Position numbers and translations under genes: made by a program. Shown one piece after another: positions 1 through 56,640 of a stretch of 64,000 bases of DNA (position 1 is the stretch's first letter; each line of letters begins with the position of its first letter). Source of the DNA: a virus. The notes under the pieces were generated by a model. It was not told where the DNA came from, did not search any database, and was given only the letters and a program-made list of their open reading frames with translations. Location: positions 6,093 through 70,092 of IMG/VR virus record IMGVR_UViG_3300034072_000369, one strand, 5' to 3'.

Positions 1-2
1 GG

Positions 3-155
3 ATTATGATGCTAAAGCTAAATGATATGGTTCCTCCAGATTATGATGATGAAGAAGGTAAACAAGAGATAACTGCTGATGAAAGTTTAATTAGTAAACC
101 TGATAATTCAGACTTTGCTAGGAGAATTGCAGATGAAGAAAACACCAAGCTCTAA
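3..155 (+). CDS. 3' end of a gene truncated by the window edge, probably the portal protein
   Basis: Open frame from the edge (IMMLKLNDMVPPDYDDEEGKQEI...) to TAA at 153-155. The portal call rests only on position upstream of MuF-scaffold-capsid and the absence of a portal elsewhere in the window. Confidence 0.4.
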   Translation: MMMLKLNDMVPPDYDDEEGKQEITADESLISKPDNSDFARRIADEENTKL

Positions 156-292: not shown

Positions 293-445
293 ATGCCACT
301 AAAGAAGGGTTATTCTCAGAAAACAATTTCTCAGAATATTAGTACGATGGTTAAAGAAGGCCGTCCGCAAAATCAAGCTATTGCTATTGCTTTAGAAAAA
401 GCTCGAGAAGCGGAGCAAAAGAAATCTAAATCGAAATCAAAATAG
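293..445 (+). CDS. Small basic phage protein (50 aa, [16 protein letters not shown]...QAIAIAL)
   Basis: ATG 293 after GAGGTG, TAG 443-445; resembles a recurrent small phage head-region protein type (recognised by eye). Confidence 0.65.
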
Positions 446-454
446 GTGAGATTT

Positions 455-3400
455 ATGTCCATCAACGCTAATACACAAATTTATGACAAAGCAATAGATA
501 GAGCTGCAATGATAAGGCTCTACGAGAGACGTGTCAATGGTAAGATTGAATTAGTTATTGATGGTCATACCGTCCGAGTAGATAAACTTATCAAAGATGC
601 AAATCTTTCAACTAAAGGCTTTAATAGATTACAGGAAGCCATTGATCAGGAACTTCAGCGAACATATAAAGAAGCATTCAATATCAGTAAAAGATCTTTA
701 TTAGATCTTGTTTCTGATCAAATCTCATTTACATACCAAAATGTAGAATCTGCATTAGGTAAGATTTGGCGTGCTGAAAGACCTCCTAAAAGAGTAGCTG
801 AAGAAATTGTACTTGAAAAACCATTACATTCTAATCAAACTTTAGCTGCTGGTTGGGCAGGTATAAGTTCTAATGAGAAGAGACGTATTGAAGCCTTAAT
901 TAGAAAAGGAATTGCAGAAAATAAAACTGTAGATGAAATTGCTTTAGATGTAAGACGAGGCAATATTCATAGTATTAGTCGTATGCAATCAAAGGCATTA
1001 GTAGTAACTGCAATAACTTCTGTAACAGCTCAAACGGATCATGCAGTATATAAAGCAAATGAAAAAGCTATCCAAGGTTGGCAATATGTTGCTGTGTTAG
1101 ACTCTAGGACAACTCCACTCTGTGCTCATAGAGATGGTAAAATATATCCAATAGATGACACACGACATTTGCCACCAGCTCATTTTCATTGTAGATCTAC
1201 TACAATTCCTGTATTCAAATCATGGGAAGATATGAGTAAATTAGAAGGTGTTGCACAAATACGGCGTAGGAATATCTCAAATCTTAGTGATAAGGATATT
1301 CAATTCTATGATGGTCAAACGCCTATGCGAGAGACCTATAATTCTTGGTTGTTAAGACAAGATAAAAGTGTACAATTACGTCATATTGGAGATTATCAAA
1401 AAGTTGAGTTATTTAGATCTGGCCAACTAGAATTAAGTAAGTTCACTAATGATGAAGGTAATTCTTTAGGTATAAAAGAACTTAGAGCAATGACAGATAG
1501 TGGATATACGCTACCAAATGACACAAGGAAATTTGCATTAGCTAAAGAAAAACTAGATGCAATGCAATTAGGCGCAAATACTCCTGATGACCTAATTAAT
1601 GACAAACAATTAAGACAAACCTTACTTGACTATTATCTATTACAGGCTGGAGATCTTAGTGGTAATTTGTCTCTAACTAACTATAGAGGCACTCTAATGG
1701 GTGTTAAGCGATCTGTAAAGAATCGCGTTTTATCTACTCCTCCTAGAGAAGATCAGCTAAAGTTTAATCCAATAACAGGTCGATATGAAGATGTTAGACT
1801 GTATCAACCAAATCCATCAGTATTAACCAATAACATAAGACTTATTGATGAGAGTACTAAGCTTTTAGATAGAGATAAAGAATTTATTAAAAACTTTGTA
1901 GATAATCTAGCTGAAAGAATGAGTGTTAATGAAAGAGCAGTAATTGCAGATAATTTAAGAATAATTTTTGGAAGATATCGAGACAATCCAGACGTATGGG
2001 TTAATCTGAAAGCAATTATTCAGAGTCAAATTAAGTTTGATGTAATGAATGTATCAGATGCTATTGAGACTCAGATTCGAAGAGACTCTGACATCTTAAA
2101 GAAAATCTTACAAGATAATTATATTGATCCAGTATTAGGTCCAGTACAATTACAAGATTTACATGATAAGTTTATAGATAATATCTTAAAACGAAATAGA
2201 TGGGAAGATAAAGTTGCACCTAAGATTGCTAATGAACTAAGGAATGTATTTGATTATAAAATACCTCTAGTTATTAAAAATAGAATTTCTGATAGAGATT
2301 TACAACAATTCTATCTAAGATTTGCGCATAGATTAAGTTTAGCGGATTCTCCAGACAGAGATCAATTCGCTATTGCATTAGGAAGAGATCTCTATAACTT
2401 AGCAAATTTAAATGGTTATAAGAGAAAATGGTATGATCTTGGATTATCTTTACTAGAATCTAAGAATGTAAAGAAATTCTTTGAAGTTGAAACATTTGGT
2501 GTTCAAAAGAGGCGAATGAAAAGTAAGTTAAGTTCAGCTTACTTTGGACCTTATTATGATACACTGTCTTATAATATTCGAGTTGTAGACCCAAGAATTC
2601 AAGAATATGCTCAACTTAATAGAAAAATAGATCTAGGACTAAGAATTAGTGTAACTGAAGATAAGAATAGACTTGTTTTCAGAGAAGGTTATAAAACCTA
2701 CTTTATTGATCGTGGAATTTTAGGATATGAAGATACTAGAATACCAATTACATCTACTAGTAGTTTTAGCGATTTTCCAGAAGAATTTGTCGACAAAGAA
2801 TTTATAGATGCTTTAAATTGGGCATCTAAGGCAAAATATAAAATAGATCAGGATTATTTCGACTTTGTACGAAAATTACTATACTTTGAAGACGACAGAG
2901 GTAATGCTAAGAAGTATAATGACTTGAACGAATATCGTAAATATATGGCATCTCGAGGAGATACATATGAGCGATTTAAGGCAATGGAATGGTTAAGAGC
3001 TTCTGGTAAGTCTTTTAGCAATCATCCATTCATTGATCATCGTGCTCGTATTTATGATCGTGGTCTAATTAGTCCTCAATCAGGTGAAGCTTTTAGACCA
3101 TTTTTGAACACAGAAGAAGTTAAGAAATTTAGTCCTGATGACTTTAGAAATTTACAAGATCAAATAGGAGCTTTTCTTGGTGGATTAAATGATTACTTTG
3201 AAGGCAGATTTAATTCTTTATCATTTACTGGCAGACAAAAAGTTGCCGAGAAATGGAGACCAGAATTAATAAGAGTAGGTAATCATATGCTAAGAGGTAA
3301 ACCTAATGATATTAGAGCTATATTAGAATCTGATTTTGTTTCTAGAGTAGATGGTGAAGAATTAAATAAATTCTTTAGATTTGCATTAGAAATTGCTAAA

Positions 3401-5083
3401 ATTGATAATTATCTAGAAGGTAATTATTCTGCTAAATCACTTGAAAAGCTTAATAATTATGATATTTCTCTTGCATTAGAGCAGGATGCTTCCTCATCTG
3501 GTGCTCAAATTATTGCATTAACTACTAGGAATAAACAACTTGCTGAATTAAGCAATGTCGTACCTACTAGTCAAAAGAAAAGATTATACGATGAAATTGC
3601 AGCTTTAACGTATAATGATCCTAGGTTTAGAAAGCTAAATGAAAGATTAGGTCTAAATGAGAAAGATTTAAGAAAAGCTTCTAAAGCTCAGAATATGGTT
3701 ACATTCTATGGTGCTGGAGAACGTACTAGTGGTCTGAATGTAGAAGGTAAATTATCTAAAGTTCTAGAAAAAGATGTAAACACATTAGTTGTAAAGGCAG
3801 CTGATAGAGATAAAGTCTTGAATGAAATAAGTGCTAGAATTGCACGATATGAGAAATTTGATCCTGAAACTGCTGAAGAACTAAGAGATTTACGTCAAAA
3901 TGTTAGAGATATATTTAACAAAGGATTAGACCCTGGTGATGAAATACTAGAGCAGCTGTATTTTCTTGATCCTAAAACTAGAGATCTTGTTGAAAAGTTG
4001 TCAACATCTTATGAAAAGATTGTGACACCAAATGACTTTAAAGCAATCGCTCAAATTATGAGTGAGTATCTTGCAGAACAAGTACCTATTCTAAAAGGAT
4101 TTACTAGATACTTTGGTAGATTAGCGGAAGACTATCTAGCTAATGCTAAACCATCTAATGCTGACTTCGATTGGAAAACAATTGCAAAAACTACATTAGT
4201 TGGAAGTAAAAAGAAAGGTTATGTACTCTCAGATAATGTAAGCCAGCTATTAGGTGTTAAAGCAGGTGAACCTCTGAGTGAGAAACTTTTAAAGAGATTT
4301 GGTTTCTGGAAACCTAATGGGACTCTAAGTCAAATTGTTTATGGGGTAGAAGCTCCAGATGTCAGGCGAACTGGTGCTAAATATCTTAAAGTAGACTTTT
4401 TACAGTTAAAGACACTAAATGAATTAGAAGTCTTTTATGCAAACAAATTACCAAAAAGCTGGACTAACGTACCTTGGGTAAATTTTGATGGAAAGATTAT
4501 TGAACAGAACTTTACGCAAACTATTGAAGAAAGATTGGTATATAAGGATAAATTTGGTAATTGGACTACAAATATTTTACAAGTGCCTCAAAAGACTGAA
4601 GCATCTTGGTGGGAACAGGTAATAAATAAATCAGGTAAAATTAATGATATTGCAGATCTTACAAGAGCTAGAACTGCCTTTGCAGTTAATGGTAATCATT
4701 CAAATGATGCTGTAATTGTAAAGAAGTTCCATTTATGGGGACGAAAGAATAAAGTTCCAACGTCTACTATACATGATGCTTTCTTTACTAATGCTGCTGA
4801 CATGTTAAAAGCTAGGCAGGCTCTAAGAGAGAGTTATGCTGAAGTTTTAAATAAGAATGTAATCAAAATGACACTAGATGAGATGCGTGCGAGAGGTCTA
4901 CCTAAAGAATTATATGATAAATATCTTGAAGAAGCTATTGAAACAGGCCTAATACCAATTCCTGGTAGGTCAAGAGTGGGTGGTAAAATACTCACAGAAA
5001 AAGATATTCTGAACAAGTCTGACATTCTTAGAGAAATCCCTAAAGGTTTTTCAAATGATTTCGGATGGTACGGAGTAGGTTAG
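455..5083 (+). CDS. Fusion of a MuF/SPP1-gp7-like minor head protein and a T7-type single-subunit RNA polymerase (putative virion RNAP)
   Basis: N-terminal MuF signature WQYVAVLDSRTTPLC...PPAHFHCRS (~1076-1200). C-terminal RNAP motifs: DHRARIY (~3035), motif A QDASSSGAQ (~3485), motif B RKASKAQNMVTFYG (~3671), motif C TIHDAF (~4769). One uninterrupted ORF; ATG 455 preferred over GTG 446 because of the AGGTG ribosome-binding site. Confidence 0.9.
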   Translation: MSINANTQIYDKAIDRAAMIRLYERRVNGKIELVIDGHTVRVDKLIKDANLSTKGFNRLQEAIDQELQRTYKEAFNISKRSLLDLVSDQISFTYQNVESALGKIWRAERPPKRVAEEIVLEKPLHSNQTLAAGWAGISSNEKRRIEALIRKGIAENKTVDEIALDVRRGNIHSISRMQSKALVVTAITSVTAQTDHAVYKANEKAIQGWQYVAVLDSRTTPLCAHRDGKIYPIDDTRHLPPAHFHCRSTTIPVFKSWEDMSKLEGVAQIRRRNISNLSDKDIQFYDGQTPMRETYNSWLLRQDKSVQLRHIGDYQKVELFRSGQLELSKFTNDEGNSLGIKELRAMTDSGYTLPNDTRKFALAKEKLDAMQLGANTPDDLINDKQLRQTLLDYYLLQAGDLSGNLSLTNYRGTLMGVKRSVKNRVLSTPPREDQLKFNPITGRYEDVRLYQPNPSVLTNNIRLIDESTKLLDRDKEFIKNFVDNLAERMSVNERAVIADNLRIIFGRYRDNPDVWVNLKAIIQSQIKFDVMNVSDAIETQIRRDSDILKKILQDNYIDPVLGPVQLQDLHDKFIDNILKRNRWEDKVAPKIANELRNVFDYKIPLVIKNRISDRDLQQFYLRFAHRLSLADSPDRDQFAIALGRDLYNLANLNGYKRKWYDLGLSLLESKNVKKFFEVETFGVQKRRMKSKLSSAYFGPYYDTLSYNIRVVDPRIQEYAQLNRKIDLGLRISVTEDKNRLVFREGYKTYFIDRGILGYEDTRIPITSTSSFSDFPEEFVDKEFIDALNWASKAKYKIDQDYFDFVRKLLYFEDDRGNAKKYNDLNEYRKYMASRGDTYERFKAMEWLRASGKSFSNHPFIDHRARIYDRGLISPQSGEAFRPFLNTEEVKKFSPDDFRNLQDQIGAFLGGLNDYFEGRFNSLSFTGRQKVAEKWRPELIRVGNHMLRGKPNDIRAILESDFVSRVDGEELNKFFRFALEIAKIDNYLEGNYSAKSLEKLNNYDISLALEQDASSSGAQIIALTTRNKQLAELSNVVPTSQKKRLYDEIAALTYNDPRFRKLNERLGLNEKDLRKASKAQNMVTFYGAGERTSGLNVEGKLSKVLEKDVNTLVVKAADRDKVLNEISARIARYEKFDPETAEELRDLRQNVRDIFNKGLDPGDEILEQLYFLDPKTRDLVEKLSTSYEKIVTPNDFKAIAQIMSEYLAEQVPILKGFTRYFGRLAEDYLANAKPSNADFDWKTIAKTTLVGSKKKGYVLSDNVSQLLGVKAGEPLSEKLLKRFGFWKPNGTLSQIVYGVEAPDVRRTGAKYLKVDFLQLKTLNELEVFYANKLPKSWTNVPWVNFDGKIIEQNFTQTIEERLVYKDKFGNWTTNILQVPQKTEASWWEQVINKSGKINDIADLTRARTAFAVNGNHSNDAVIVKKFHLWGRKNKVPTSTIHDAFFTNAADMLKARQALRESYAEVLNKNVIKMTLDEMRARGLPKELYDKYLEEAIETGLIPIPGRSRVGGKILTEKDILNKSDILREIPKGFSNDFGWYGVG

Positions 5084-5086
5084 TGA

Positions 5087-5104
5087 AACCCGTTAAATTA
5101 ACCC
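5087..5104 (+). promoter_or_regulatory. Class 1 conserved motif AACCCGTTAAATTAACCC (putative phage RNAP promoter), upstream of scaffold and capsid genes
   Basis: One of five near-identical 18-mers, all intergenic and in the same orientation. Confidence 0.75.
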
Positions 5105-27276: not shown

Positions 27277-27320
27277 AGAATTAGTGAATCGGAATAGGTA
27301 GTGGGTGCGTGAGTAAAATT

Positions 27321-27432: not shown

Positions 27433-27476
27433 TAAAACAAATTTCATAAACACATATGCTCAGAATTATTAATACG

Positions 27477-27494
27477 AACCCGTTAGATTAACCC
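27477..27494 (+). promoter_or_regulatory. Class 1 motif AACCCGTTAGATTAACCC upstream of the lysis genes
   Basis: 17/18 match to the consensus, intergenic. Confidence 0.75.
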
Positions 27495-27565
27495 TGAGAC
27501 GTACCCCTATATTATCATTTAATTGTTAATAGTAGTTTTGTATATCTCATTAATTAAGGAATAAT

Positions 27566-28093: not shown

Positions 28094-28416
28094 CTTTAGG
28101 ACAGCATCAAGAAGCATTTTCTAAAGATCTTGTCAAGCTATTAACCAAAGCATTTGAACTAGGTTATGATGCAAGATTAGGTGAACTGCAAAGAACTGTA
28201 GAACAGCAAGAGCTTTACGTTAAAACAAATAGATCCAAGACAATGAATAGCATGCATTTGAAGAAATGTGCTATTGACATTTATTTTATGAAGAACGGTC
28301 AAGTTGTTTTCCCTGAAGAACTAGGGAAATATTGGGAGAGTTTAAATACTTTGAATCAAGCAGGAATGTTCTGGAAAAGATTTAAAGATGCTCCCCACTA
28401 CGAAAGGCATGTCTAA
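28090..28416 (+). CDS. Endolysin, peptidase M15 family
   Basis: RTVEQQ, SMHLKKCAID (SxHxxxxAxD) and DAPHYE (DxPH) zinc-peptidase motifs. Confidence 0.85.
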   Translation: MTLGQHQEAFSKDLVKLLTKAFELGYDARLGELQRTVEQQELYVKTNRSKTMNSMHLKKCAIDIYFMKNGQVVFPEELGKYWESLNTLNQAGMFWKRFKDAPHYERHV

Positions 28417-28419
28417 AAT

Positions 28420-28448
28420 AGCCCCACAGAAATGTGGGGTTTTTATTT
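28420..28448 (+). terminator. Intrinsic terminator ending the lysis transcript
   Basis: GCCCCACA-GAAA-TGTGGGGT followed by TTTTATTT. Confidence 0.85.
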
Positions 28449-28476
28449 GCGGAAAATATGGTATCTTATATGATAA
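28449..28476 (+). promoter_or_regulatory. Class 2 motif GCG-N9-GTATCTTATATGATA (putative early promoter)
   Basis: GCGGAAAATATGGTATCTTATATGATAA; 27/28 identical to 29449-29476; also readable as sigma70-like TTGCGG-16-TATGAT. Confidence 0.7.
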
Positions 28477-28517
28477 GCGCATCGCTTGTCTAAACAGACT
28501 TTTGAAAGGAATTAGCT

Positions 28518-28649
28518 ATGTATACGATAACCGTTGTTTATCGCAATCGTGTCGATTCTTGGACAACTGAGGAACCAAATGTTGAAATTAAAACTCTCTT
28601 ATTAATTGCAAGAGAAATTGTTAAATTAGTAGTAACTAGAAATCAGTGA
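28518..28649 (+). CDS. Small early protein (43 aa)
   Basis: AAAGGA RBS, ATG 28518, TGA 28647-28649; first gene after the class 2 motif. Confidence 0.6.
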   Translation: MYTITVVYRNRVDSWTTEEPNVEIKTLLLIAREIVKLVVTRNQ

Positions 28650-28655
28650 GGCTAT

Positions 28656-28772
28656 ATGAAAAAGATTTTAGATAATCCAGATCTTATGGATATTATTGTA
28701 ATGTGCACTATGCTGTATATGCTTGTTATGATTTTAACATTTTTAATTGTAGCAGGTAACCTAGAGTATTGA
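28656..28772 (+). CDS. Small membrane protein (38 aa)
   Basis: GAGG RBS, one hydrophobic segment. Confidence 0.5.
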   Translation: MKKILDNPDLMDIIVMCTMLYMLVMILTFLIVAGNLEY

Positions 28773-28785
28773 AAGGAGGTGACAA

Positions 28786-29238
28786 ATGAAAATATTGATA
28801 GGTATTATCATATTCTTCATTTGTGTAAATCCCAATGCAGCTAGTCACCACTATCAATCAAAAGTAAAAACTTTGCCAGATAAAGAACTTCTTTGTTTGG
28901 CAAAGAACGCCTATTATGAGGCAAGAGGTGAAGGCGAACTGGGCTTATTACTAGTAACACAAGTAGTATATAATAGAGTTACTGGTAATAACTTTTGTGA
29001 TGTAATATATAGGCATAAGCAATTTTCTTGGACATTAAGAAAACAAAAGCCTATATCAAAAGAAGAATTAATGAAATTAAAATGGATGATGTTAGCATTT
29101 CATAATGATTATTATAAAATCCCAGATCATCTTAAAGAGGCAACTCATTTTCATGCTGTATATGTTAAACCTTATTGGTCTAGAAATTTAAAATATCTAG
29201 GTCAGTGGAAAAATCATCGATTCTACAAGGAGATCTAA
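28786..29238 (+). CDS. SleB/Hydrolase_2-family cell wall hydrolase with signal sequence
   Basis: CLAKNAYYEARGE, VVYNRV, QFSWT, ATHFHA, HRFY motifs; hydrophobic N-terminus. Confidence 0.88.
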   Translation: MKILIGIIIFFICVNPNAASHHYQSKVKTLPDKELLCLAKNAYYEARGEGELGLLLVTQVVYNRVTGNNFCDVIYRHKQFSWTLRKQKPISKEELMKLKWMMLAFHNDYYKIPDHLKEATHFHAVYVKPYWSRNLKYLGQWKNHRFYKEI

Positions 29239-29459
29239 TGAAAACTTTAGCTATATTATGTCTTTTGTTAACAGGTTGTGCCTCAGCAATACCACACGAT
29301 TCTTATATACAAAGTAGTTCTATAATATATAAGACTAATCAGTATGGTGAAACTCAACCCCATAACGGTATTTACAGAATTATTGGTAATCAAATTTATC
29401 AAGCAGATTCTGTAGGAAATATTATGTATCACAAGAATAGTCTAAAACGCGGAAAATAG
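29238..29459 (+). CDS. Small lipoprotein
   Basis: MKTLAILCLLLTGCAS lipobox; AAGGAG RBS. Confidence 0.65.
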   Translation: MKTLAILCLLLTGCASAIPHDSYIQSSSIIYKTNQYGETQPHNGIYRIIGNQIYQADSVGNIMYHKNSLKRGK

Positions 29460-29476
29460 GGTATCTTATATGATAA
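29449..29476 (+). promoter_or_regulatory. Class 2 motif, second copy
   Basis: GCGGAAAATAGGGTATCTTATATGATAA, 20 bp upstream of ORF 29497. Confidence 0.7.
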
Positions 29477-29496
29477 CACTATCAGAAAGGACTTAA

Positions 29497-29685
29497 ATGA
29501 AAATCTTTAAAGTTACACATTATAATAATGAATCAGGACAATATTTTGACGAATATTTTTCTGATGTTCATATGGCGGCAAGAAGGTTTGAAACATTAGA
29601 GACCGCCGCTGAAAAATCAAAAGTTGGCGAAGGTGTTGAAGATGTTAATTTTTGTATGGTCTTAGTTATTACTCCAAGGAGCTGA
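29497..29685 (+). CDS. Hypothetical protein
   Basis: AAAGGA RBS; 62 aa. Confidence 0.65.
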   Translation: MKIFKVTHYNNESGQYFDEYFSDVHMAARRFETLETAAEKSKVGEGVEDVNFCMVLVITPRS

Positions 29686-29686
29686 A

Positions 29687-30031
29687 ATGAAGAAGTTGAT
29701 TGTGTCTGTTTTTATTTTTTATGGATCTATTGCAAGTGCTGCACAAGGTGTAGATCAAAGCATCAAGATTCTTGATGTGAATGAATCTACTCAAGGTGCA
29801 TCTAAAATGCTTACATGTATTGCTGCAAGTGAAACTGCTATAGATGCATTTGAACTTAAACAAAATAGAAAGAAACTTGTATATCATAAAACAGATGATA
29901 TACTTGCTGCTGTACTTGTGAAGAAAGCAATGGATGCTGGCTACAAATCAAAATCAGTTGCAGATGCAGCTAAGGCTGGTTTTGAGAGCTGTATCAAATC
30001 TAAAATCTGGAATGAAAATTCTCAACTTTGA
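29687..30031 (+). CDS. Hypothetical exported protein
   Basis: Signal-peptide-like N-terminus (MKKLIVSVFIFYGSIASAAQ); AAGGAG RBS. Confidence 0.65.
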   Translation: MKKLIVSVFIFYGSIASAAQGVDQSIKILDVNESTQGASKMLTCIAASETAIDAFELKQNRKKLVYHKTDDILAAVLVKKAMDAGYKSKSVADAAKAGFESCIKSKIWNENSQL

Positions 30032-30042
30032 AAGGTCTAACC

Positions 30043-30441
30043 ATGAAGCCTATTGAACTCATTAAGAAAAGTGTCTTTAATTTTGCCATTGGTATTGCAA
30101 GTTTATCACTTATAGTCTCACTATTGTTTAATGCAATGCTGTTAGTAAAAGTTGATGAAGACCAACAGAAGATTGGAATTTTAGTTAGTCAAGCACAAGC
30201 AGACAAAGCTCAAATTCAAAATCTAACTGTAGTTCTTCACAATGCTAATGAAAGAGTACAAAAAGCTGAAAGTAATCTAAAGCAAGTTCAGTTTAAGTTG
30301 GATTCTGCATTAGTACCTCAGAGCAATGTACAAGAAGCCTTTAAAGAGAATGTTGCAAAACCTGTAACAGAAACTTCAAAAGGTTTGTGGCACCTAGCTG
30401 TAGATAATTCCAAGAGAGCTTGGAATTATGTCTTTCACTAA
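30043..30441 (+). CDS. Membrane-anchored coiled-coil protein
   Basis: N-terminal TM segment followed by a Q-rich coiled coil. Confidence 0.6.
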   Translation: MKPIELIKKSVFNFAIGIASLSLIVSLLFNAMLLVKVDEDQQKIGILVSQAQADKAQIQNLTVVLHNANERVQKAESNLKQVQFKLDSALVPQSNVQEAFKENVAKPVTETSKGLWHLAVDNSKRAWNYVFH

Positions 30442-30703
30442 GAAAAAGAAGACATTAGGGACAGTGTTGTGGGAATTCTTTAGGGGAGATAATAGAAATC
30501 CCACAACTACTGATATTGTAAAATGTTTAGCACAAGGGTCTATTGCAAGAGCGAAGGTAAAAGCTCTATATAAAGAGCAATTAAGAATTGAGAATGAACG
30601 AGAAAAAATTACTAAGTTACAAGAAGTATTAAGAACATCGAGAAAAGGAAGTATTGAATACGAGAGAGCATTACGTAAAATCTTTAAGATTTTACAATTA
30701 TAA
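30428..30703 (+). CDS. Hypothetical basic protein
   Basis: 91 aa ORF overlapping the upstream gene and ending at a terminator. Confidence 0.55.
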   Translation: MSFTKKKKTLGTVLWEFFRGDNRNPTTTDIVKCLAQGSIARAKVKALYKEQLRIENEREKITKLQEVLRTSRKGSIEYERALRKIFKILQL

Positions 30704-30754
30704 CACTACCCTTCGGGGTAGTGTTTCTTTGTTTTGCTTTATTTTTTTTTTTTT
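30702..30754 (+). terminator. Intrinsic terminator with UUCG tetraloop and downstream CTTTA-T13
   Basis: AACACTACCC-TTCG-GGGTAGTGTT, T-rich tail, CTTTA(T)13 at 30737-30754. Confidence 0.85.
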
Positions 30755-30932
30755 CTACGCTCCGTTTGGACATTCATTAATTAACTAAACGGAGCCAGGG
30801 CATGTATGATATATTAGCCATCTTAATAAATTTCTTTCGATTAGGTCTAATAGTCATATTTAATTGTCTTGCTATTTATTTGCTTATTAGCATTTTCCCA
30901 TATCTCATAAAGCTAATTTTCTGGGAATTTTC

Positions 30933-33218
30933 ATGAAACAAAAGATAGTTGATAGTTTAAACAGTAGATTAAAATCAGAGATATCATCTCATAATCCAAT
31001 TAAATATTTGTTTAATTATAAAGTTGAAGAATATATTGACAATATTATTTCTGTCGTTTATTTATATACAAGACCTAAAAAAGGTGTTAATAAGAATTCA
31101 ATATACTTAACTGAAATTATTGCCGCAATAGGCCATAATATCCGTGGAAAATATCGACTAAAAAGAGATTCTGCATTAGCAGCTAAAACAGGTGCATTTA
31201 TATTGTATACTTTTGAAGAGATTGGTTATATTCAAGTTTTATTAGGTCAGGGTTCTAAGGGGCATAATAGCTATATAGTACAGGTTTTGAATGATGAAGC
31301 TATCTGTAATTTGTGGAACAATTTAGATCCTAGTCAAATTGAGAAGCTCCCATCTGAGACTCCGTATGAACCTTGGAAAACAACTCGACATCCTACTGGC
31401 TTCTGGTTAATCAAAACTGGCAATAAAGATGTCTTAGATAAAGTCTCACCAACAACACATCCAATTATATTTGAATGTGTAAATAAAGCACAAGCTACTG
31501 GTTGGCGAATTAATGAAGAAATCTTTTCAATCCAATCCTGGGCTTTACGAAATAAAACTCAAGCGTTCTCAGATATATGGGATGCTCAGAGTATAGAGTC
31601 AAGATCTACTAAATTAAGAGAAGCAAAAGCTATAGGTGATATTGCTAAAAGATTCTTAAACAAAACTTTTTATCATTTATATTATTATGACTTTCGTGGC
31701 CGTAAATATGTTGCAACGGCATATCTACATGAGCAAGGTAGTGACTTAGCTAGAGGTCTTTTACTAAGAGCTGATCAAAAGAAAATAGGTAAAGAAGGTT
31801 TCTTTTGGTTAATGGTTAGCATCGCTTCATCTTGGGCAGGTGATGCTGGAAGAGAAGATGGAGCAAAGACTGACAAAATACCATTGAAAGACAGATACTT
31901 ATGGTCTATAGATAATGAAGAGATTCTAATGTCTTATGCTGAGAAACCTAAATTAAATCAAGGATGGATGAAAGCTGATAAACCTTGGCAATTTCTAGCA
32001 TGCTGTATCGAGCTTAGAAAGTTTAGACATTGGCAATTATCCTTCTTCGATGACTATGTTGATATTGCCCTAATAGATCAAGAGCTTGATAGATTAACTG
32101 TAGATCCGTATGACTATGAATCAAGTTTAGAATGCTATGTAGACGGCTCAAATAACGGCAGTCAGCACTTATCCGCATTAACTAAAGATGAGGTCATCGC
32201 ACCTCATGTGAATTTAGTACCTTCAGATTTGCCTGGAGATCTATATAAGTATGTAGGTGATCATGTTTGGTCACATCTTGAGCAAGAGCTAGCATTGATG
32301 AAACAAGATGAGATAGAAGATTGTGAAGCCTTTATTGATAATCTAATTGAAATTAAGAAACAAATAAATGCTGCAGAACCTAACAGTAATGCACGTAAGG
32401 AACTTATAGAAAAGATAAAACAATTTAAGCAAGATAATGAGTATCTGTTGACAATATCTGCACCTGTGTTCTGGTATCGAATAAAAGACACTAAACATAA
32501 ACGTAAGATTGTCAAGAGAAATACAATGACTATTCCATACGGAGGCACTGCATATGGCTTAGGTCAACAAATTATTGATGATGCTAAGAAACATAATATT
32601 GATTTATTACTTTATATGGAACATAAATGGGGTGCTTACTTAGGTAGAGAAGTTTTTAGTGACTGTAAAGTATCATTAGAAAGACCAATGCAACTATTAC
32701 GAGTATTCGAAGATGCTGGTAAAAAGGCAGAGAAAAATAATAGATTCCTAAGTTGGACTGTACCTGTAACTAAATTTCCTGTAGTTCAAAATTATACAGA
32801 AGGAAATGTTAAAAAGATATGGGTACAATATGGTCCACCAAAAGGTCAACGTAATAGTACTGGTTACTATGAGAATACTCTACAACTTGCAGTTTGCTTT
32901 GTTGAAGATGTGAAGCCATCTAAAGGAAAACAATCGCAAGGTGCAAGTCCTAATATTATTCATAGTCTAGATGCAGCACATCTTGCAATGACTGTAAGTA
33001 AAGCAGATTTTCCAGTAACTACAATACATGACTCATTCGGATGTCTCTTAGCAGATATGCCTAAATTATTTACATTATTAAGACAGACTTTTGTAGAATT
33101 GTATGAGAATGATCCTTTAACAGCAATAATAAGTGAGATTGGAGGTAATTTAGATGACGTACGTTTAGGTAGTTTAGATTTAAGTTTAATACTAGATAGT
33201 GAATATTGTTTTTCATGA
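30933..33218 (+). CDS. T7-type single-subunit DNA-directed RNA polymerase (stand-alone)
   Basis: DFRGRKY, motif A VDGSNNGSQHL, motif B RKIVKRNTMTIPYG, PNIIHSLDAAHL, motif C TIHDSFG. Confidence 0.95.
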   Translation: MKQKIVDSLNSRLKSEISSHNPIKYLFNYKVEEYIDNIISVVYLYTRPKKGVNKNSIYLTEIIAAIGHNIRGKYRLKRDSALAAKTGAFILYTFEEIGYIQVLLGQGSKGHNSYIVQVLNDEAICNLWNNLDPSQIEKLPSETPYEPWKTTRHPTGFWLIKTGNKDVLDKVSPTTHPIIFECVNKAQATGWRINEEIFSIQSWALRNKTQAFSDIWDAQSIESRSTKLREAKAIGDIAKRFLNKTFYHLYYYDFRGRKYVATAYLHEQGSDLARGLLLRADQKKIGKEGFFWLMVSIASSWAGDAGREDGAKTDKIPLKDRYLWSIDNEEILMSYAEKPKLNQGWMKADKPWQFLACCIELRKFRHWQLSFFDDYVDIALIDQELDRLTVDPYDYESSLECYVDGSNNGSQHLSALTKDEVIAPHVNLVPSDLPGDLYKYVGDHVWSHLEQELALMKQDEIEDCEAFIDNLIEIKKQINAAEPNSNARKELIEKIKQFKQDNEYLLTISAPVFWYRIKDTKHKRKIVKRNTMTIPYGGTAYGLGQQIIDDAKKHNIDLLLYMEHKWGAYLGREVFSDCKVSLERPMQLLRVFEDAGKKAEKNNRFLSWTVPVTKFPVVQNYTEGNVKKIWVQYGPPKGQRNSTGYYENTLQLAVCFVEDVKPSKGKQSQGASPNIIHSLDAAHLAMTVSKADFPVTTIHDSFGCLLADMPKLFTLLRQTFVELYENDPLTAIISEIGGNLDDVRLGSLDLSLILDSEYCFS

Positions 33219-33630
33219 GGAATTTATGAAAGATCTTGGTAATAATCTAAGCGAAATGAGGCTAAATAATTCACCAACAAGTGTAATTAATTTAGTTGAG
33301 AAATTTATAGTTGAAACACAAATTGATGATGAGTTATTTGGCGAAGACTTTGATTCAGACTTAGGTGGTCGTTTCTACCTAGTAGAATCTGAAGATGATC
33401 TTAGTGAGATTTGTCTTGCATCCTATGATGAGACTATGCTCAAATATCACACTTTAGCAGATCATGCTGGAGCATTTGATATGTGCGAATATACAGAATG
33501 TGGTGAATTTGTTCAAGTGTTGTTGTGTACTAATAATGCAGGCGGTAATGTTTACTTAATTCCAAAGACAATTGCAGAACAATCTGCTAATGTTATTAAA
33601 TCTATTGAGTTAACAAATGCTAGTAACTAA
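33199..33630 (+). CDS. Acidic hypothetical protein
   Basis: ORF track; start may be ATG 33226. Confidence 0.6.
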   Translation: MNIVFHEEFMKDLGNNLSEMRLNNSPTSVINLVEKFIVETQIDDELFGEDFDSDLGGRFYLVESEDDLSEICLASYDETMLKYHTLADHAGAFDMCEYTECGEFVQVLLCTNNAGGNVYLIPKTIAEQSANVIKSIELTNASN

Positions 33631-33820
33631 AACTTCTATAATTACAGGTATTGAAAGAACTGTAGATATTGATATAACTTTAGATCAACTTAAACGATGG
33701 GAGAGAGGCGAAGATATTATTCAAAATATAATGCCAAATTTAACAGCAAATGAACGTGAATTTATTATGACAGGTATGACACCAGATGAATGGGATGAGG
33801 TGATTGGCGATGAAGACTAA
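33617..33820 (+). CDS. Small phage protein
   Basis: 67 aa; IQNIMPNLTANEREFIMTGMTPDEWD resembles a recurrent phage hypothetical family. Confidence 0.65.
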   Translation: MLVTKTSIITGIERTVDIDITLDQLKRWERGEDIIQNIMPNLTANEREFIMTGMTPDEWDEVIGDED

Positions 33821-34013
33821 ATATATTGTAGTTCAAATTAATGACTATACTGGATTTGCTTTAGAATTCTCAAATGAAACTTTAGCTTTACTTGAAAATA
33901 TAATTCCTGTACGTGTTAAGAGTGGATACGGAGATCCTATTCGCTTCTCTATAGAGAATAAGAAAGAATATCCCTTATACTTAATCAAAGCTATTGAACA
34001 AACTGAAGAGTAA
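33804..34013 (+). CDS. Hypothetical protein
   Basis: ORF coupled to the upstream gene. Confidence 0.5.
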   Translation: MAMKTKYIVVQINDYTGFALEFSNETLALLENIIPVRVKSGYGDPIRFSIENKKEYPLYLIKAIEQTEE

Positions 34014-34038
34014 AAAATAAATACTTAATTGATTTAAG

Positions 34039-34056
34039 AACCCGTTAAATTAACCC
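34039..34056 (+). promoter_or_regulatory. Class 1 motif upstream of the SSB/replication operon
   Basis: Exact AACCCGTTAAATTAACCC. Confidence 0.75.
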
Positions 34057-34088
34057 TAATCTAGAGACTTAACTTTTGAAGGAAAAAT

Positions 34089-34589
34089 ATGCCTATCATT
34101 AAAGACTGTGAATTGTGGTTTTGCAAATTGAACCCTAAGCGTCCTAATAATCGTTTTAACAAAGAAAACCCCACTTGGGAATGTCAGATTCGTACAAAAG
34201 ATAAATCAGTTAAAAAGATTTGGGAAGAATTCTCTTTACCTGTAAAAGCCGTAGTGCCTGATGATGGTGAGCCTTACTTTCGAGTAAATCTTCGAAAGAA
34301 AAGTATTAAAGAGGATAAAGAGCCTGCGTCCCCAATTAGAGTTATCAATGGCAAACTGGAAGACATTGATCCTGACACTATTGGAAATGGTTCTGTTGGC
34401 AATATTCGTGTGTTTCAGTATGAATATCCAAATAAGAAAGGTGGCAAAGGTATTGCTTCAGTTCTTATGGGAATTCAAGTTACTAAGCACATTGTATATA
34501 AGCCTAAGCCTAGGAATGATGAATTTGATGAAACTGATACTGAAACTATTGATGCCGATGAGCATGACGATCATCAAGATGACTTTTAA
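34089..34589 (+). CDS. Single-stranded DNA-binding protein (T7 gp2.5-like)
   Basis: IGNGSVGNI and LMGIQV motifs, acidic tail ending in Phe, first gene of the replication module. Confidence 0.8.
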   Translation: MPIIKDCELWFCKLNPKRPNNRFNKENPTWECQIRTKDKSVKKIWEEFSLPVKAVVPDDGEPYFRVNLRKKSIKEDKEPASPIRVINGKLEDIDPDTIGNGSVGNIRVFQYEYPNKKGGKGIASVLMGIQVTKHIVYKPKPRNDEFDETDTETIDADEHDDHQDDF

Positions 34590-34600
34590 AAGTTAATCTG

Positions 34601-34629
34601 AAGGGCTACTCTAAATGGGTAGCCCTTTA
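34601..34629 (+). terminator. Stem-loop after the SSB gene (terminator or processing site)
   Basis: AAGGGCTACTC-TAAAT-GGGTAGCCCTT; short T tail. Confidence 0.55.
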
Positions 34630-34646
34630 ATTTCAAAGGAGAGATT

Positions 34647-35231
34647 ATGCAATTTACATATACAGTATTTACAAAACAATCTTTGGACTCTGAATCGCCG
34701 CGTACGGATATTCGTGGACATGTCTCTACTAACTTTGATGAATTTTGTGAAGATGATGTTACAAATCGATCATATATTGAAGTTTATAACAACTCTACAC
34801 AGACAATTGAAAGATTTTTAAAAAACACAGATGATTATGAAGTCTGGCGATTAAAACTTGAAAGAGAATACGCCTGGAAACCGAGATCTTTCCTTAAAAC
34901 TTCAAATCAACAATCCTCAGATAAATATAATTCAGCTGTAAATCCTGCACACTATAAAGGCTATTTAGATGATTATGAATGGCTAGATGTTCAAGCAAGA
35001 ATTCCAAGATTTAAAGACAAGTCTAATTTTAAAGCTGCAATAGAACTTCAAATTAGAAAGTATCTAGATCGCAACGGAAGAAAAGATGATGAATTGCAGG
35101 AGATGCAAAAGGGTCTTTTCTATCACATATATTTAGTGTTATACTCTAAGGCAGATAAGCCAATTAAAGTATCTGATGTCCACAAAATTATGGATTTAAT
35201 TCATGAGACTAGTATTCGATATCGAGACTGA
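34647..35231 (+). CDS. Protein with C-terminal DUF3310-like domain
   Basis: AVNPAHY...KYLDRNGRKD...EMQKG pattern. Confidence 0.6.
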   Translation: MQFTYTVFTKQSLDSESPRTDIRGHVSTNFDEFCEDDVTNRSYIEVYNNSTQTIERFLKNTDDYEVWRLKLEREYAWKPRSFLKTSNQQSSDKYNSAVNPAHYKGYLDDYEWLDVQARIPRFKDKSNFKAAIELQIRKYLDRNGRKDDELQEMQKGLFYHIYLVLYSKADKPIKVSDVHKIMDLIHETSIRYRD

Positions 35232-37068: not shown

Positions 37069-37142
37069 ATGTTCATCATTTGTCATAGATAAGAACCCTG
37101 CCTACTAATAGGCAATGGAGTTCATCACTATTTGGAGAGAAA

Positions 37143-48167: not shown

Positions 48168-48185
48168 AACCCGTTAAGTTAACCC
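48168..48185 (+). promoter_or_regulatory. Class 1 motif AACCCGTTAAGTTAACCC
   Basis: 17/18 match to the consensus, intergenic. Confidence 0.75.
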
Positions 48186-48227: not shown

Positions 48228-48254
48228 GCGTTAAAAGTAGTATCTTATATGATA
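48228..48254 (+). promoter_or_regulatory. Class 2 motif, third copy
   Basis: GCG-TTAAAAGTA-GTATCTTATATGATA; same spacing as the other two copies; also TTGCGT-16-TATGAT. Confidence 0.7.
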
Positions 48255-48288
48255 GCGACATGCTATCTAATCTTAAGGAAATTTAAAA

Positions 48289-49003: not shown

Positions 49004-49049
49004 TCCCTCCTTTTAAGGAGGGATTTTTTTAGTTCTTTATTTTTTTTTT
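49004..49049 (+). terminator. Intrinsic terminator with downstream CTTTA-T10
   Basis: TCCCTCCTT-TT-AAGGAGGGA followed by T7, then CTTTA(T)10 at 49035-49049. Confidence 0.85.
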
Positions 49050-49065
49050 ACTTAAGGCTATTAAT

Positions 49066-56126: not shown

Positions 56127-56186
56127 ACCTCCAGAGAGATCCTTTATAGGGTCTTTCTGGAGGTTCCTCTTTATTTTTTTTTTTTT
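56127..56186 (+). terminator. Long stem-loop followed by CTTTA-T13
   Basis: ACCTCCAGAGAGATCCT / AGGGTCTTTCTGGAGGT stem; CTTTA(T)13 at 56169-56186. Confidence 0.75.
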
Positions 56187-56622: not shown

Positions 56623-56640
56623 AACCCGTTAAATTAACCC
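56623..56640 (+). promoter_or_regulatory. Class 1 motif upstream of the cyclase/terminase operon
   Basis: Exact AACCCGTTAAATTAACCC. Confidence 0.75.

Follow-up and report, generated by a model that had tools for sequence, protein, structure and literature searches.

Two T7-type RNA polymerase genes in the window

The window, by which we mean the whole 64,000-nucleotide stretch of viral DNA that was analysed, carries two genes for single-subunit RNA polymerases (RNAPs) of the T7 type, one fused to a MuF-type head protein and the other standing alone. The features around them are as follows.

1..155 (genome 4664-6247), + strand: 3' end of the portal gene (phrog_145, 3.5e-58)
293..445: 50-aa ORF, which together with a gap of 137 bp lies between the portal and MuF-RNAP genes on the gene map
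446..5083, + strand: MuF-RNAP fusion, 1545 aa (PF04233 and PF00940), made up of a MuF module (about aa 1-350), a helical linker (about 350-567) and a divergent T7-type RNAP (about 568-1545)
29497..30703, + strand: four small ORFs (62, 114, 137 and 91 aa), candidate early genes without a Pfam match
30933..33218, + strand: stand-alone T7-type single-subunit RNAP, ATG start, 761 aa, 10 Cys

The stand-alone ORF is, judging from its sequence, a regular and intact member of the T7-type RNAP family. It matched PF00940 (RNA_pol) at E 1.1e-63 (216 bits; cut-off 22), PDB chains of T7 RNAP with an E value of 1.6e-43 and phrog_414 with 1.1e-111. A sequence-only reading of this DNA had described a stand-alone enzyme of 761 aa with motif spellings unlike those of the fused one, and the ORF matched that description exactly; its motifs are DGSNNG at 404, HSLDA at 677 and HDSF at 699. 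When the protein was aligned with T7 RNAP in MAFFT, 8 of the 8 checked catalytic or nucleotide-binding residues were retained: T7 D537, R627, K631 and Y639 correspond to D404, R524, K528 and Y536, and T7 G640, H784, H811 and D812 to G537, H677, H699 and D700. In the same alignment, D421 and R425 of the T7 DxxGR motif correspond to D253 and R257, and a specificity-loop region is present, with T7 N748 and R756 replaced by S and T. The N-terminal part is about 120 aa shorter than that of T7 and was aligned with long gaps. With the catalytic residues of T7 kept, the stand-alone enzyme looks active.

The gene was expected between small early genes and the replication operon, and the gene map agrees. 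Upstream of it lie the four small ORFs and a further one of 44 aa; on its 3' side three small ORFs are followed by an SSB-like gene (34089) and a family A DNA polymerase gene (35203), with genes for a 5'-3' exonuclease, a primase-helicase, a ribonucleotide reductase and a ligase further downstream. As read from the translations, the N-terminus of ORF 29687-30031 resembles a signal peptide, ORF 30028-30441 has a hydrophobic stretch, and the product of the cell-wall hydrolase gene at 28786-29238 has a signal-peptide-like N-terminus; a lipoprotein-like ORF occupies 29205-29459. The Rfam scan of the window returned a single tRNA and nothing else.

The MuF-fused polymerase

The fused ORF matched PF04233 (Phage_Mu_F) over aa 148-254 (50.6 bits, E 3.8e-13; cut-off 29.6), PF00940 (48.5 bits, E 7.5e-13; cut-off 22) and the head morphogenesis family phrog_241 (E 7.7e-63), and no Pfam match was obtained for the linker, aa 340-900. 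Its polymerase motifs are DASSSG at 1014, HSNDA at 1418 and HDAF at 1443. The polymerase part was only weakly matched by phmmer, the sole match among PDB sequences being N4 RNAPII (E 0.067), so that profile and fold methods were needed. With hhalign, a profile of the MuF-RNAP family was aligned with T7 residues 398-877 over 430 columns (probability 99.1%, E 6.7e-19), and T7 residues 1-397 had no sequence-level match to this profile. A fold model of aa 851-1545 (pLDDT 80.8) resembled T7 RNAP (1h38_A; Z 27.6, rmsd 3.6 over 426 residues) and yeast mitochondrial RNAP (Z 28.0). From a second model, of aa 340-900 (pLDDT 86.1), the predicted structure of residues 568-900 resembled the N-terminal parts of single-subunit RNAPs with middling scores (Z 8-9.5), and single-subunit RNAPs accounted for all 50 matches listed; the values were Z 9.5 with an rmsd of 6.2 over 231 residues for N4 RNAPII subunit 1, and Z 8.1-9.3 for T7 residues of about 30-457.

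A search of 1.84 billion representatives gave 146 matches to the MuF-RNAP family, and an N-terminal MuF was found in 21 of the 21 long matches scanned (1264-2073 aa); by these comparisons the fused form is a stable family. Across 34 MuF-RNAPs, whose identity falls to 21%, the residues R868, D1014, K1077, K1080, Y1088, G1089, D1421 and D1444 (domain numbering plus 850) are invariant and align with T7 motifs A, B and C, and a C-terminal WYGVG is conserved across the family alignment. One might suppose that the polymerase part is an inactive relic or a structural component of the head, leaving the phage with one working RNAP; the very low identity to known RNAPs would suit such a relic, as would the labels of the depositors, who annotated the fusion as a head protein or hypothetical protein. 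We regard this as very improbable, since the catalytic residues do not vary over sequences so divergent, the fold model is confident, the C-terminal WYGVG is kept, and the family has been maintained across deep clades. On the strength of its invariant catalytic residues and its T7-like fold model, the fused enzyme looks active.

Virion signatures of the fusion

The MuF-RNAP gene is placed after the portal gene and before the scaffold and capsid genes. MuF is the family of SPP1 gp7, a protein located at the portal, so an RNAP fused to a portal-adjacent head protein is plausibly virion-borne. The cysteine content was also striking: the fusion has only 2 Cys, both in the MuF module, and none in its last 1296 residues, and the polymerase part is free of Cys in 33 of the 34 family members. 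The scaffold, capsid and 1923-aa tape-measure proteins have 0 Cys each, and the counts for the DNA polymerase, primase-helicase, terminase and stand-alone RNAP are 10, 9, 8 and 10, respectively. From the fusion itself, its gene position and its Cys-free composition, the fused enzyme is probably a virion protein.

The virus had been taken for a long-tailed phage, and its tail genes bear this out: a tape-measure protein (PF20155, 1.5e-60), a major tail protein, a distal tail protein and a tail chaperone are encoded, and no sheath match was noticed.

Kinship and co-inheritance of the two polymerases

When compared with each other by BLASTP, the two RNAPs were 26% identical over 107 aa (E 4e-5), which upholds the description of the second enzyme as divergent. 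In a phylogenetic tree, an analysis that the sequence-only reading had proposed, they fell into separate deep clades. The stand-alone RNAP forms a clade with the RNAPs of DSS3_VP1 and Kolga, the sister of which consists of T7/Xp10-type enzymes, and the union of this clade with the T7/Xop411 group received an SH-aLRT value of 99; each of the two RNAPs groups with its own counterpart from DSS3_VP1. The low identity and the separate deep clades led to rejection of a recent duplication of the free enzyme as the source of the fused one.

Both RNAPs were found in 17 of the 17 near-complete relatives searched (17 of the 21 relatives' contigs longer than 60 kb), and the MuF-RNAP gene of the relatives is a repeated target of mobile inserts. 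Within 50,697 phage records, the fused polymerase module was matched in only 4, and megablast with 12 kb around the stand-alone RNAP gene gave no match. The roseophages DSS3_VP1 and DSS3_PM1 carry both enzymes as well, the fusion being annotated there only as 'head morphogenesis'. As far as gene content tells, the pair of RNAPs is co-inherited, and the two-RNAP arrangement is common to a large uncultured clade and to cultured Naomviridae, rather than peculiar to the window.

Two classes of promoter-like motifs

Two motif classes were found in front of gene blocks, class A (about 18 nt; CCCGTTAAATTAACCC) and class B (about 28 nt; GCGgAAAA-N4-GTATCTTATATGA). They are listed here with the terminator-like hairpins.

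5087..5104, + strand: class A, AACCCGTTAAATTAACCC, 3 nt past the MuF-RNAP stop codon, upstream of scaffold, capsid and tail genes
27477..27494, + strand: class A (1 mismatch), upstream of genes 27566-28416
28420..28441, + strand: terminator-like hairpin, ending the class A unit begun at 27477
28449..28476, + strand: class B, GCGGAAAATATGGTATCTTATATGATAA, directly after the terminator, upstream of hydrolase and lipoprotein genes
29449..29476, + strand: class B, ahead of the small genes (29497-30703) found before the RNAP gene
30702..30755, + strand: terminator-like hairpin of 10 pairs, then a T-rich stretch and 13 consecutive T; distance to the start codon of the RNAP gene about 180 nt
34039..34056, + strand: class A, upstream of SSB and the replication block (34089-48013)
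48168..48185, + strand: class A (1 mismatch), with a class B motif 42 nt downstream
48228..48255, + strand: class B (variant upstream half), upstream of gene 48289-48843
49004..49050, + strand: terminator-like hairpin and T-run, after the unit begun at 48168/48228
56127..56186, + strand: terminator-like hairpin of 17 pairs and T-run, closing the small-gene block 49066-56119
56623..56640, + strand: class A, upstream of an AT-rich 417-bp region and a block of cyclase-like, terminase and structural genes

Five copies of class A were observed against 0.08 expected, and three of class B against 0.00. In the window's genome and in five relatives' genomes, one of which was covered for 60 of 69.7 kb, both classes occur exclusively on the gene strand, and the motif logos (90 and 100 unique instances) are sharp-edged. 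These are two conserved, strand-specific and promoter-like motif classes, far above chance by the counts given. Class A precedes the head/tail, replication and packaging blocks; its centre is variable and it has no conserved start region. The copy at 5087 is kept in position in 12 of 12 intact relatives (L084-L095), and the relatives have a syntenic class A copy about 0.3-2.7 kb downstream of the RNAP gene. Class B clusters upstream of the stand-alone RNAP gene, 1.5 kb away in the window; among 100 relatives' loci scanned, 46 had it on the gene strand, mostly 0.8-4 kb upstream of the RNAP gene, and in the window and the relatives it is the motif nearest upstream of that gene. In the window, class B contains a partial palindrome (TATC...GATA), which many of the relatives have lost, as in ...TATATGAAAG. 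The pair of A and B motifs recurs in G001, at 63341/63410, and elements resembling both classes occur in DSS3_VP1. In the genome of Pelagibacter phage Kolga (30% GC) nothing above noise was seen, and no repeat clearly resembled class A or class B.

Other repeats were considered too. CCTGAGTATGTCTAAAAACT, present twice in exact form (48859 and 48894) and a third time in degenerate form, was rejected as a third promoter class, being weak and irregular in the relatives. Repeats like TATAATGAT (five in 56619-57035 and one at 5118) could be an origin, a pac region or promoters.

A proposed relay between the two polymerases

The phage thus has two RNAP genes, one of them tied to a virion protein. 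Since one of its two RNAPs is fused to a capsid protein, the phage probably injects that one and then switches to the other. The best reading, to which we give a somewhat better than even chance, is that two single-subunit RNAPs act in succession, the virion enzyme first and the free enzyme after it. The MuF-RNAP fusion would be built into the capsid beside the portal and would leave with the DNA; once injected, it would transcribe the first genes from one promoter class, most likely class B, and after its synthesis the 761-aa RNAP would take over at the other class, most probably class A. Packaging and ejection of the fusion, the pairing of enzymes with motifs, the order of events and the independence from host RNAP are what we infer, and the distribution of the motifs fits such an early-to-middle/late relay.

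The pairing could also be the other way round, with the virion enzyme reading class A and the stand-alone enzyme class B. Should the G of ATG be the transcription start, the layout of class B is by our own reading T7-like, with an A-rich stretch from about -15 to -19, a conserved block from -12 to -5 and ATAT ahead of the start; this makes it more T7-like than class A, which lacks a conserved start region, so the assignment of motif to enzyme could be reversed. The class A site at 27477, which also lies upstream of the RNAP region, would suit this exchange as well. Few injected copies would, however, have to make nearly all of the mRNA, given the class A copies before the head/tail, replication and packaging blocks, while the abundant new enzyme would serve merely 2-4 short units, and it is class B that is closest upstream of the RNAP gene. 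We therefore consider the exchanged pairing a distinctly unlikely one.

Terminators, host-type promoters and the possible order of transcription

A strong terminator-like hairpin with a T-run stands between the class B units and the stand-alone RNAP gene, and a comparable hairpin with a T-run was seen upstream of that gene in most of the 18 relatives viewed; expression of the RNAP from class B would thus need read-through or an unrecognised promoter. Likewise the block 49066-56119 (about 30 small genes in about 7 kb) lies behind a terminator with neither motif in front of it, and a third promoter type, possibly that of the host, may serve it.

The absence of class A and class B motifs directly before the RNAP gene and before this block agrees with a scheme like that of T7 or Xp10, in which host RNAP would transcribe first, including the mRNA of the stand-alone RNAP, and the free enzyme would then read one or both classes; the MuF-fused enzyme would be an accessory at entry, pulling DNA or making primers, and would drive no stage of expression. 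There are precedents for both parts: T7 RNAP takes part in internalising the DNA and in priming replication, and in the siphovirus Xp10 transcription begins with host RNAP and passes to the phage's own T7-type RNAP. Kolga, in which a related stand-alone RNAP occurs with a 633-aa MuF-type protein and the fused polymerase module was not found, points the same way.

The scans for host-type promoters are weak tests, as the promoters of the actual host could be missed. Sigma-70-like sites numbered 52 in 47500-58000 against 49.8 in shuffles, and in 27000-35000 they were mildly raised on both strands (50 against 35.9). The scan for Bacteroidota-type promoters gave three full sites, all intragenic. 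Neither type was found in the intergenic regions scanned. A lone hint at the host is one homologue named Flavobacterium sp.

The lack of such intergenic promoters argues against a start by host RNAP, and two equally conserved motif classes are hard to reconcile with a single phage enzyme. In addition, the fused enzyme appears in the models to keep a complete RNAP, including counterparts of the N-terminal domain, and its gene is a recurrent target of mobile inserts, as conserved and important genes tend to be. The T7- or Xp10-like scheme is thus unlikely in our judgement, although it remains the strongest rival of the relay from virion RNAP to free RNAP.

The sequence-only reading had proposed a two-polymerase cascade in which the second enzyme also transcribes the lysis operons. 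The cascade gains from two intact RNAPs that are co-inherited, one of them fused to a head protein, and from the two motif classes; its lysis part does not fare as well. The hydrolase and lipoprotein genes (28786-29459) sit behind class B and not behind the 'late' class A, which is no simple fit to transcription of lysis operons by the second RNAP, and should their products act in lysis, class B would not be an exclusively early class.

Comparison with known phages

According to the N4 annotation and PDB titles, coliphage N4 (Schitoviridae) passes from its virion RNAP gp50 to RNAPII (gp15 and gp16) and then to host RNAP. The phage studied here resembles N4 in that an injected RNAP of the single-subunit type would be succeeded by a second phage RNAP, and in that the virion enzyme forms one portion of a far larger polypeptide. 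The fused enzyme is nevertheless not a member of the N4 virion-RNAP family, which was ruled out by an hhalign probability of 0.8% between the MuF-RNAP family profile and gp50; its predicted fold is nearer to T7 and mitochondrial RNAPs (Z 27-28) than to the N4 mini-vRNAP (Z 15.8), which stands alone on a very long branch of the tree. The fusion has 1545 aa and carries MuF, against 3500 aa in N4; N4 is short-tailed, whereas this virus has a long-tailed gene set; the second enzyme here is a one-chain, full-length T7-type RNAP and not a heterodimer; and the motifs here are not conserved hairpins. Because class A also precedes structural genes, host RNAP may not be needed late, unlike in N4. The earlier comparison with N4 is apt for the logic of the system alone; the fused enzyme is T7- or mitochondrial-like.

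T7-like phages and Xp10 have one phage RNAP, and host RNAP starts their transcription. The stand-alone enzyme belongs to the same T7-type family as those of T7-like phages (Autographiviridae) and Xp10/Xop411; the search with the fused polymerase module gave no match among these phages.

Among long-tailed phages, Thermus phage P23-45 is a precedent for a cascade of two RNAPs. Its virion RNAP is, in the passages of PMC10770324 (2024), fused to a structural protein, the tape measure, and transcribes pre-early genes, among them the one for a second RNAP that uses promoters of a different class. As described in those passages, both of its RNAPs are two-barrel enzymes homologous to cellular ones and arose by duplication, whereas those found here are T7-type and belong to separate deep clades; the carrier there is the tape measure and here the head protein MuF. 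A MuF module at the N-terminus and an enzyme at the C-terminus, thought to be delivered with the DNA, are also known from MuF-fused effectors and toxins (Iyer et al., 2017, PMC5512222). The cargoes named in the MuF passages of that paper are RNases, 2H phosphoesterases, RelA/SpoT domains, PRTases and zeta-toxin-like kinases, and RNA polymerase is absent from them.

DSS3_VP1 and DSS3_PM1 are described in the passages of Rihtman et al. (2021; PMC8323127) as roseophages of the Naomviridae, siphoviruses with dU-DNA. They share the gene order of portal, MuF-RNAP, capsid/tail genes, small genes, RNAP and replication genes. Identity to the proteins of the window is 34% for the stand-alone RNAP and 27-37% for the fusion; the kinship is distant, without a match at the DNA level. 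No homologue of the Naomviridae enzymes for dU-DNA (dCMP-deaminase family, HD hydrolase) was found among the ORFs of the window, and dU-DNA in this phage was rejected on present evidence, no Dcd or Dtm homologue having been found.

Significance of the two-polymerase arrangement

A literature search returned no description of a MuF-fused RNAP or of two-RNAP Naomviridae, though supplements or ICTV proposals may list RNAP genes, and neither is mentioned in the passages of PMC12697855, PMC11934525, PMC12390700 and the preprint 10.1101/2025.10.29.685362. In the main text of PMC8323127 the terms 'RNA polymerase', 'RNAP', 'MuF' and 'virion' are absent, and its supplements may list RNAP genes. Taken as a whole, the following proposal falls a little short of an even chance in our estimate: complete T7-type RNAPs anchored to MuF and delivered from the capsid would be an undescribed class, and together with the free RNAP they would spare an entire, widespread clade of aquatic siphoviruses, the dU-DNA Naomviridae included, any need of host RNAP from the first minute, with class B as the promoter of the injected enzyme and class A as that of the free one. 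It would be the third independent invention of such a relay, after N4 and the two-barrel enzymes.

Relays with an injected polymerase are known in few systems, namely N4, the phiKZ/AR9 jumbo phages, crAss-like phages and P23-45, and from each of them something new was learned about how RNAPs work and how DNA enters the cell. Phages PBS2 and AR9, whose DNA contains dU, likewise encode RNAPs of their own, and in the Naomviridae the possession of own polymerases may be tied to dU-substituted DNA. Two orthogonal single-chain RNAPs with short and sharply delimited candidate promoters (about 18 and 28 nt) would be of interest to builders of expression systems, and the same gene pair is present, unannotated, in cultured roseophages that grow on the genetic model host Ruegeria pomeroyi DSS-3.

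Gene order and general features of the genome

The source virus record is 70,092 bp long and rated 100% complete, and the window, which corresponds to its bases 6093-70092, has a G+C content of 34.4%. Of 58 ORFs that reach 100 aa or more, the plus strand holds 53, and each of the remaining five, on the minus strand, is nested in a longer plus-strand ORF. The genes follow one another in this order.

Order of genes (window positions unless marked genome)
1. Terminase and tail-fibre-like genes
2. Portal (genome 4664-6247)
3. 446-5083, fusion of head protein MuF with a divergent T7-type RNA polymerase (RNAP), 1545 aa; then scaffold and capsid
4. Adaptor, major tail protein, chaperone, 1923-aa tape measure, large tail proteins
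5. Peptidase-like gene, cell-wall hydrolase, lipoprotein-like gene
6. Four small genes, then 30933-33218, the stand-alone (free) RNAP
7. SSB-like gene, DNA polymerase A, exonuclease, primase-helicase, class II ribonucleotide reductase, ligase, DHH phosphoesterase
8. About 30 small genes, including one tRNA-Leu

This layout is that of a virulent siphovirus, and a megablast of 12 kb around the free RNAP gene gave no DNA-level match among 50,697 phage records. The class II (B12-type) ribonucleotide reductase (41237-43989) is split into ORFs 41237-42286 and 43090-43989, and the LAGLIDADG endonuclease ORF between them (42379-43005) suggests an intron or intein with its homing enzyme. The replication block also holds a free-standing GIY-YIG (SegE-like) endonuclease gene (38942-39427) and a pyrimidine-dimer glycosylase gene (37645-38091); the tRNA-Leu, with anticodon TAA, lies at 50559-50642 in the small-gene block. 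Just 5′ of the terminase genes, a 406-aa protein (57212-58432) carries an adenylate/guanylate cyclase catalytic domain (PF00211, 2.4e-9) and gave no PHROG match. Collagen-like 9-nt (Gly-X-Y type) repeats and repeated modules of roughly 320 nt were seen at 23449-24180 in the 2452-aa tail protein. An RNAP homologue, P0179 (71% identical), carries the NCBI name 'Flavobacterium sp.', and this name together with the low G+C is a weak hint of a Bacteroidota host.

The stand-alone RNA polymerase

The sequence-only reading had proposed a second, divergent T7-type RNAP of 761 aa at 30933-33218, and this was confirmed by matches to PF00940 (1.1e-63), T7 RNAP chains (1.6e-43) and phrog_414 (1.1e-111); the motif spellings that it gave were also right for both enzymes, as were the positions. 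Alignment with T7 RNAP revealed that D537, R627, K631, Y639, G640, H784, H811, D812 and the D421/R425 motif are kept, that the N-terminal part is about 120 aa shorter, and that the C-terminus reads ...YCFS as against ...FAFA in T7 RNAP. At least 79 related loci were found in IMG/VR, and 633 proteins among the candidates scored E <= 1e-10. The match spanned 2.7-3.3 kb, not about 2.25 kb, in 13 relatives (loci L011, L020, L028, L037, L039, L046, L052, L056-L058, L061, L064 and L071); insertions of some 0.45-1 kb probably enlarge this gene in part of the phages.

The polymerase fused to MuF

The first 350 residues of the fusion matched head-morphogenesis families (phrog_241, 7.7e-63), the MuF domain itself occupying aa 148-254; PF00940 matched weakly in two stretches. 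When the C-terminal half was searched by sequence against the PDB, the sole match was N4 RNAPII (E 0.067). When all 1.84 billion cluster representatives were scanned with HMMER, a small fused-polymerase family emerged, with 146 proteins at E <= 0.001, of which 65 reached E <= 1e-30, and with many fragments among its members; an N-terminal MuF was present in all 21 long members scanned (1264-2073 aa), and PF00940 at E <= 0.001 in 17 of them. Ten columns were invariant in an alignment of 34 members falling to 21% identity, among them D1014 (motif A), K1080, Y1088 and G1089 (motif B), D1421 and D1444 (motif C), and likewise R868 of a DxxGR-like motif. Such constancy of the catalytic columns makes an inactive fusion extremely improbable, and both RNAPs are predicted, with high confidence, to be active.

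Profile-profile comparison placed the invariant columns on T7 residues (99.1%, E 6.7e-19, T7 398-877). The family profile scored 96.7% over 179 columns against the free RNAP of the window and 90.5% against N4 RNAPII gp16; membership of the N4 virion-RNAP family failed this sequence test, with a probability of 0.8% against gp50. An AlphaFold model of aa 851-1545 (pLDDT 80.8, pTM 0.77) gave the following structural matches, with which Foldseek agreed.

Structural matches of the model of fusion aa 851-1545
Yeast mitochondrial RNAP: Z 28.0, rmsd 2.5, 402 residues aligned
T7 RNAP: Z 27.6, rmsd 3.6, 426 residues aligned
N4 RNAPII: Z 17.1, rmsd 3.8, 324 residues aligned
N4 mini-vRNAP: Z 15.8, rmsd 3.9, 441 residues aligned

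In a second model, of aa 340-900 (pLDDT 86.1), residues 568-900 aligned to N4 RNAPII subunit 1 and to T7 residues about 30-457 at middling Z of 8-9.5, and all 50 structural matches listed for these residues were single-subunit RNAPs. They are read as a probable, not proven, counterpart of the RNAP N-terminal domain. Taken together, the domain matches, the profile comparison and both models indicate MuF at about aa 1-350, a helical linker at about aa 350-567 and a probably complete RNAP at about aa 568-1545.

Probable virion location of the fused enzyme

As proteins of the head, MuF and gp7 associate with the portal, and fusions to MuF are believed to deliver cargo (Iyer et al., 2017, PMC5512222). 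The fusion gene lies between the portal and the scaffold/capsid genes. The fusion has two cysteines, at positions 226 and 249 within the MuF motif, none being found in the next 1296 residues, and the polymerase part was free of cysteine in 33 of 34 family members. Cysteine was also absent from the scaffold and capsid proteins, the 1923-aa tape measure and the product of ORF 60900-62465. Ten cysteines each were counted in the free RNAP and the DNA polymerase, nine in the primase-helicase and eight in the terminase. The rule of cysteine-free virion proteins is not absolute, since two large tail proteins contain 9 and 5. Cargo delivery by MuF fusions, gene position and cysteine-poor make-up support virion status indirectly, and the fused enzyme is likely to be packaged and ejected.

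Occurrence in relatives and phylogeny

The nearest cultured phages are the roseophages DSS3_VP1 and DSS3_PM1 (Naomviridae), whose RNAP (732 aa in DSS3_VP1) is 34% identical to the free RNAP and whose 1463-aa 'head morphogenesis' protein consists of MuF and PF00940 and is 27-37% identical to the fusion. All 17 relatives' contigs searched, of 21 longer than 60 kb, encode the fusion, 12 as one frame and five (G003, G011, G014, G015 and G016) in two or three pieces, with breaks near residues 991-995 or 1083-1090 (motif B); the gene in the window is uninterrupted. Among 50,697 phage records, tblastn matched the polymerase module only in the DSS3 phages and in EBPR siphovirus 1, a partial record with 66% identity. 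There the fusion gene (L127:25771-31144) is split, with an HNH endonuclease gene in the gap, and is annotated 'head protein' and 'hypothetical'.

The cores of 36 polymerases were placed in a quick maximum-likelihood tree, in which the two RNAP domains fell into separate clades. The free RNAPs of this clade of phages clustered with DSS3_VP1 and Kolga (SH-aLRT 95), that group being sister (99) to the enzymes of T7, Xop411 and others of the Autographiviridae type, and 12 of the 14 MuF-RNAPs formed a clade of their own (95), P0099 and P0110 not being placed. Each enzyme of the window clustered with its own DSS3_VP1 counterpart; these pairings and the separate clades rule out a recent duplication. 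From the tree and the co-inheritance in relatives, we infer that the pair is old.

Promoter-like motifs

Two strand-specific classes of promoter-like motif were identified.

Motif copies in the window
5087, 27477, 34039, 48168, 56623, plus strand: class A, AACCCGTTAAATTAACCC, all intergenic; 5 copies against 0.08 expected
28449, 29449, 48228: class B, GCGGAAAATAnGGTATCTTATATGATAA; 3 copies against 0.00 expected

Five relatives' genomes, one scanned over 60 of 69.7 kb, carried 3-5 copies of class A and 2-4 of class B, on the gene strand without exception; a few one-mismatch class B matches inside genes are probably due to chance. Class A was present in 72 of 104 loci scanned, just 3′ of the fusion-gene stop codon in 12 of 12 intact loci and also downstream of the RNAP gene, and class B in 46 of 100, usually 0.8-4 kb 5′ of the RNAP gene. 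The logos had sharp edges: A.CCCGTTAAATTAACCCt for class A (90 unique instances) and aaa.tgCGgaaaaa..gGTATCTTATATGaaa for class B (100 unique instances). In DSS3_VP1, ATAGGnTnCGTTAAAGAnG, which has CGTTAAA in common with class A, occurs at least 10 times, and a 32-nt element similar to class B, with GGCATCTATAATGA at its end, occurs twice.

Class B, by our own reading, does not fit a sigma-70 -10 box: whichever register is chosen, its invariant TCTTATATG is without either the A of position 2 or the T of position 6, and the flanks of TCTTATATG are conserved too. Sigma-70-like sites were mildly enriched on both strands at 27000-35000 (50 against 35.9 ± 5.4) and not enriched at 47500-58000 (52 against 49.8 ± 6.4 expected), and the three Bacteroidota-type full promoter sites were all within genes, none intergenic; these promoter scans are weak tests. 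That the host RNAP starts transcription and the fused enzyme acts as an accessory is possible but unlikely.

Several intergenic features were also observed. The 417-bp AT-rich gene-free region at 56619-57035, directly after a class A motif, contains five TTTAAn-TATAATGAT-like repeats (a sixth follows the class A motif, at 5118); it may serve as an origin or packaging site, or may hold a cluster of promoters. At 48844-49065, two exact and one degenerate tandem copies of CCTGAGTATGTCTAAAAACT, weakly conserved in relatives, precede two hairpins and a T-run. G+C-rich stretches at 27277-27440 and 48014-48160, each just 5′ of class A, look structured by eye and gave no Rfam match.

Transcription units and the order of the two enzymes

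Strong terminator-like hairpins on the plus strand (28420, 30702, 49004 and 56127) and the motifs delimit these units.

Proposed transcription units
A(27477): two genes, terminator
B(28449): hydrolase and lipoprotein genes
B(29449): four small genes, terminator and T13, 44-aa ORF, RNAP, three small genes
A(34039): replication genes, up to 48013
A(48168) and B(48228): one gene, three tandem repeats, two hairpins and T-run
About 30 small genes, terminator, one gene
A(56623): 417-bp AT-rich region, cyclase-like gene, terminase, tail fibres, portal, fusion gene
A(5087): head and tail genes

The same CTTTATTTTTTTTTT element was seen 3′ of three strong hairpins (30737, 49035 and 56169), and relatives have a T-run of 10-34 T 5′ of the RNAP gene, often some bases past the hairpin; hairpin and CTTTATTTTTTTTTT or T-run may be more than a plain terminator.

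In the relay favoured here, the virion enzyme would open transcription, most likely from class B, and the free enzyme would take over, with class A as its most likely motif; we rate this relay as slightly more probable than not. The terminator 5′ of the RNAP gene, also seen in most of 18 relatives compared, calls for leakiness or an unrecognised promoter, and neither motif was found for the block of about 30 small genes. Because of these two misfits and the T7-like layout of class B, the assignment of enzymes to motifs is tentative; a relay with the classes exchanged, which that layout favours, appears improbable.

Neither an RNAP fused to MuF nor a pair of RNAPs in Naomviridae was found described in the full-text searches and main-text passages that our literature search covered, and 'RNA polymerase' is absent from the main text of Rihtman et al. 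(2021, PMC8323127); the fusion seems new to print. The earlier proposal of an N4-like logic built from different parts holds for the resemblance and for the parts. A virion RNAP followed by a second phage RNAP is known in N4, and similar logic is described for the long-tailed P23-45 (Chaban et al., 2024, PMC10770324). Unlike N4 and P23-45, the present phage would carry its putative injected enzyme on MuF, this enzyme is T7- or mitochondrial-like, and its second enzyme is a full-length T7-type RNAP.
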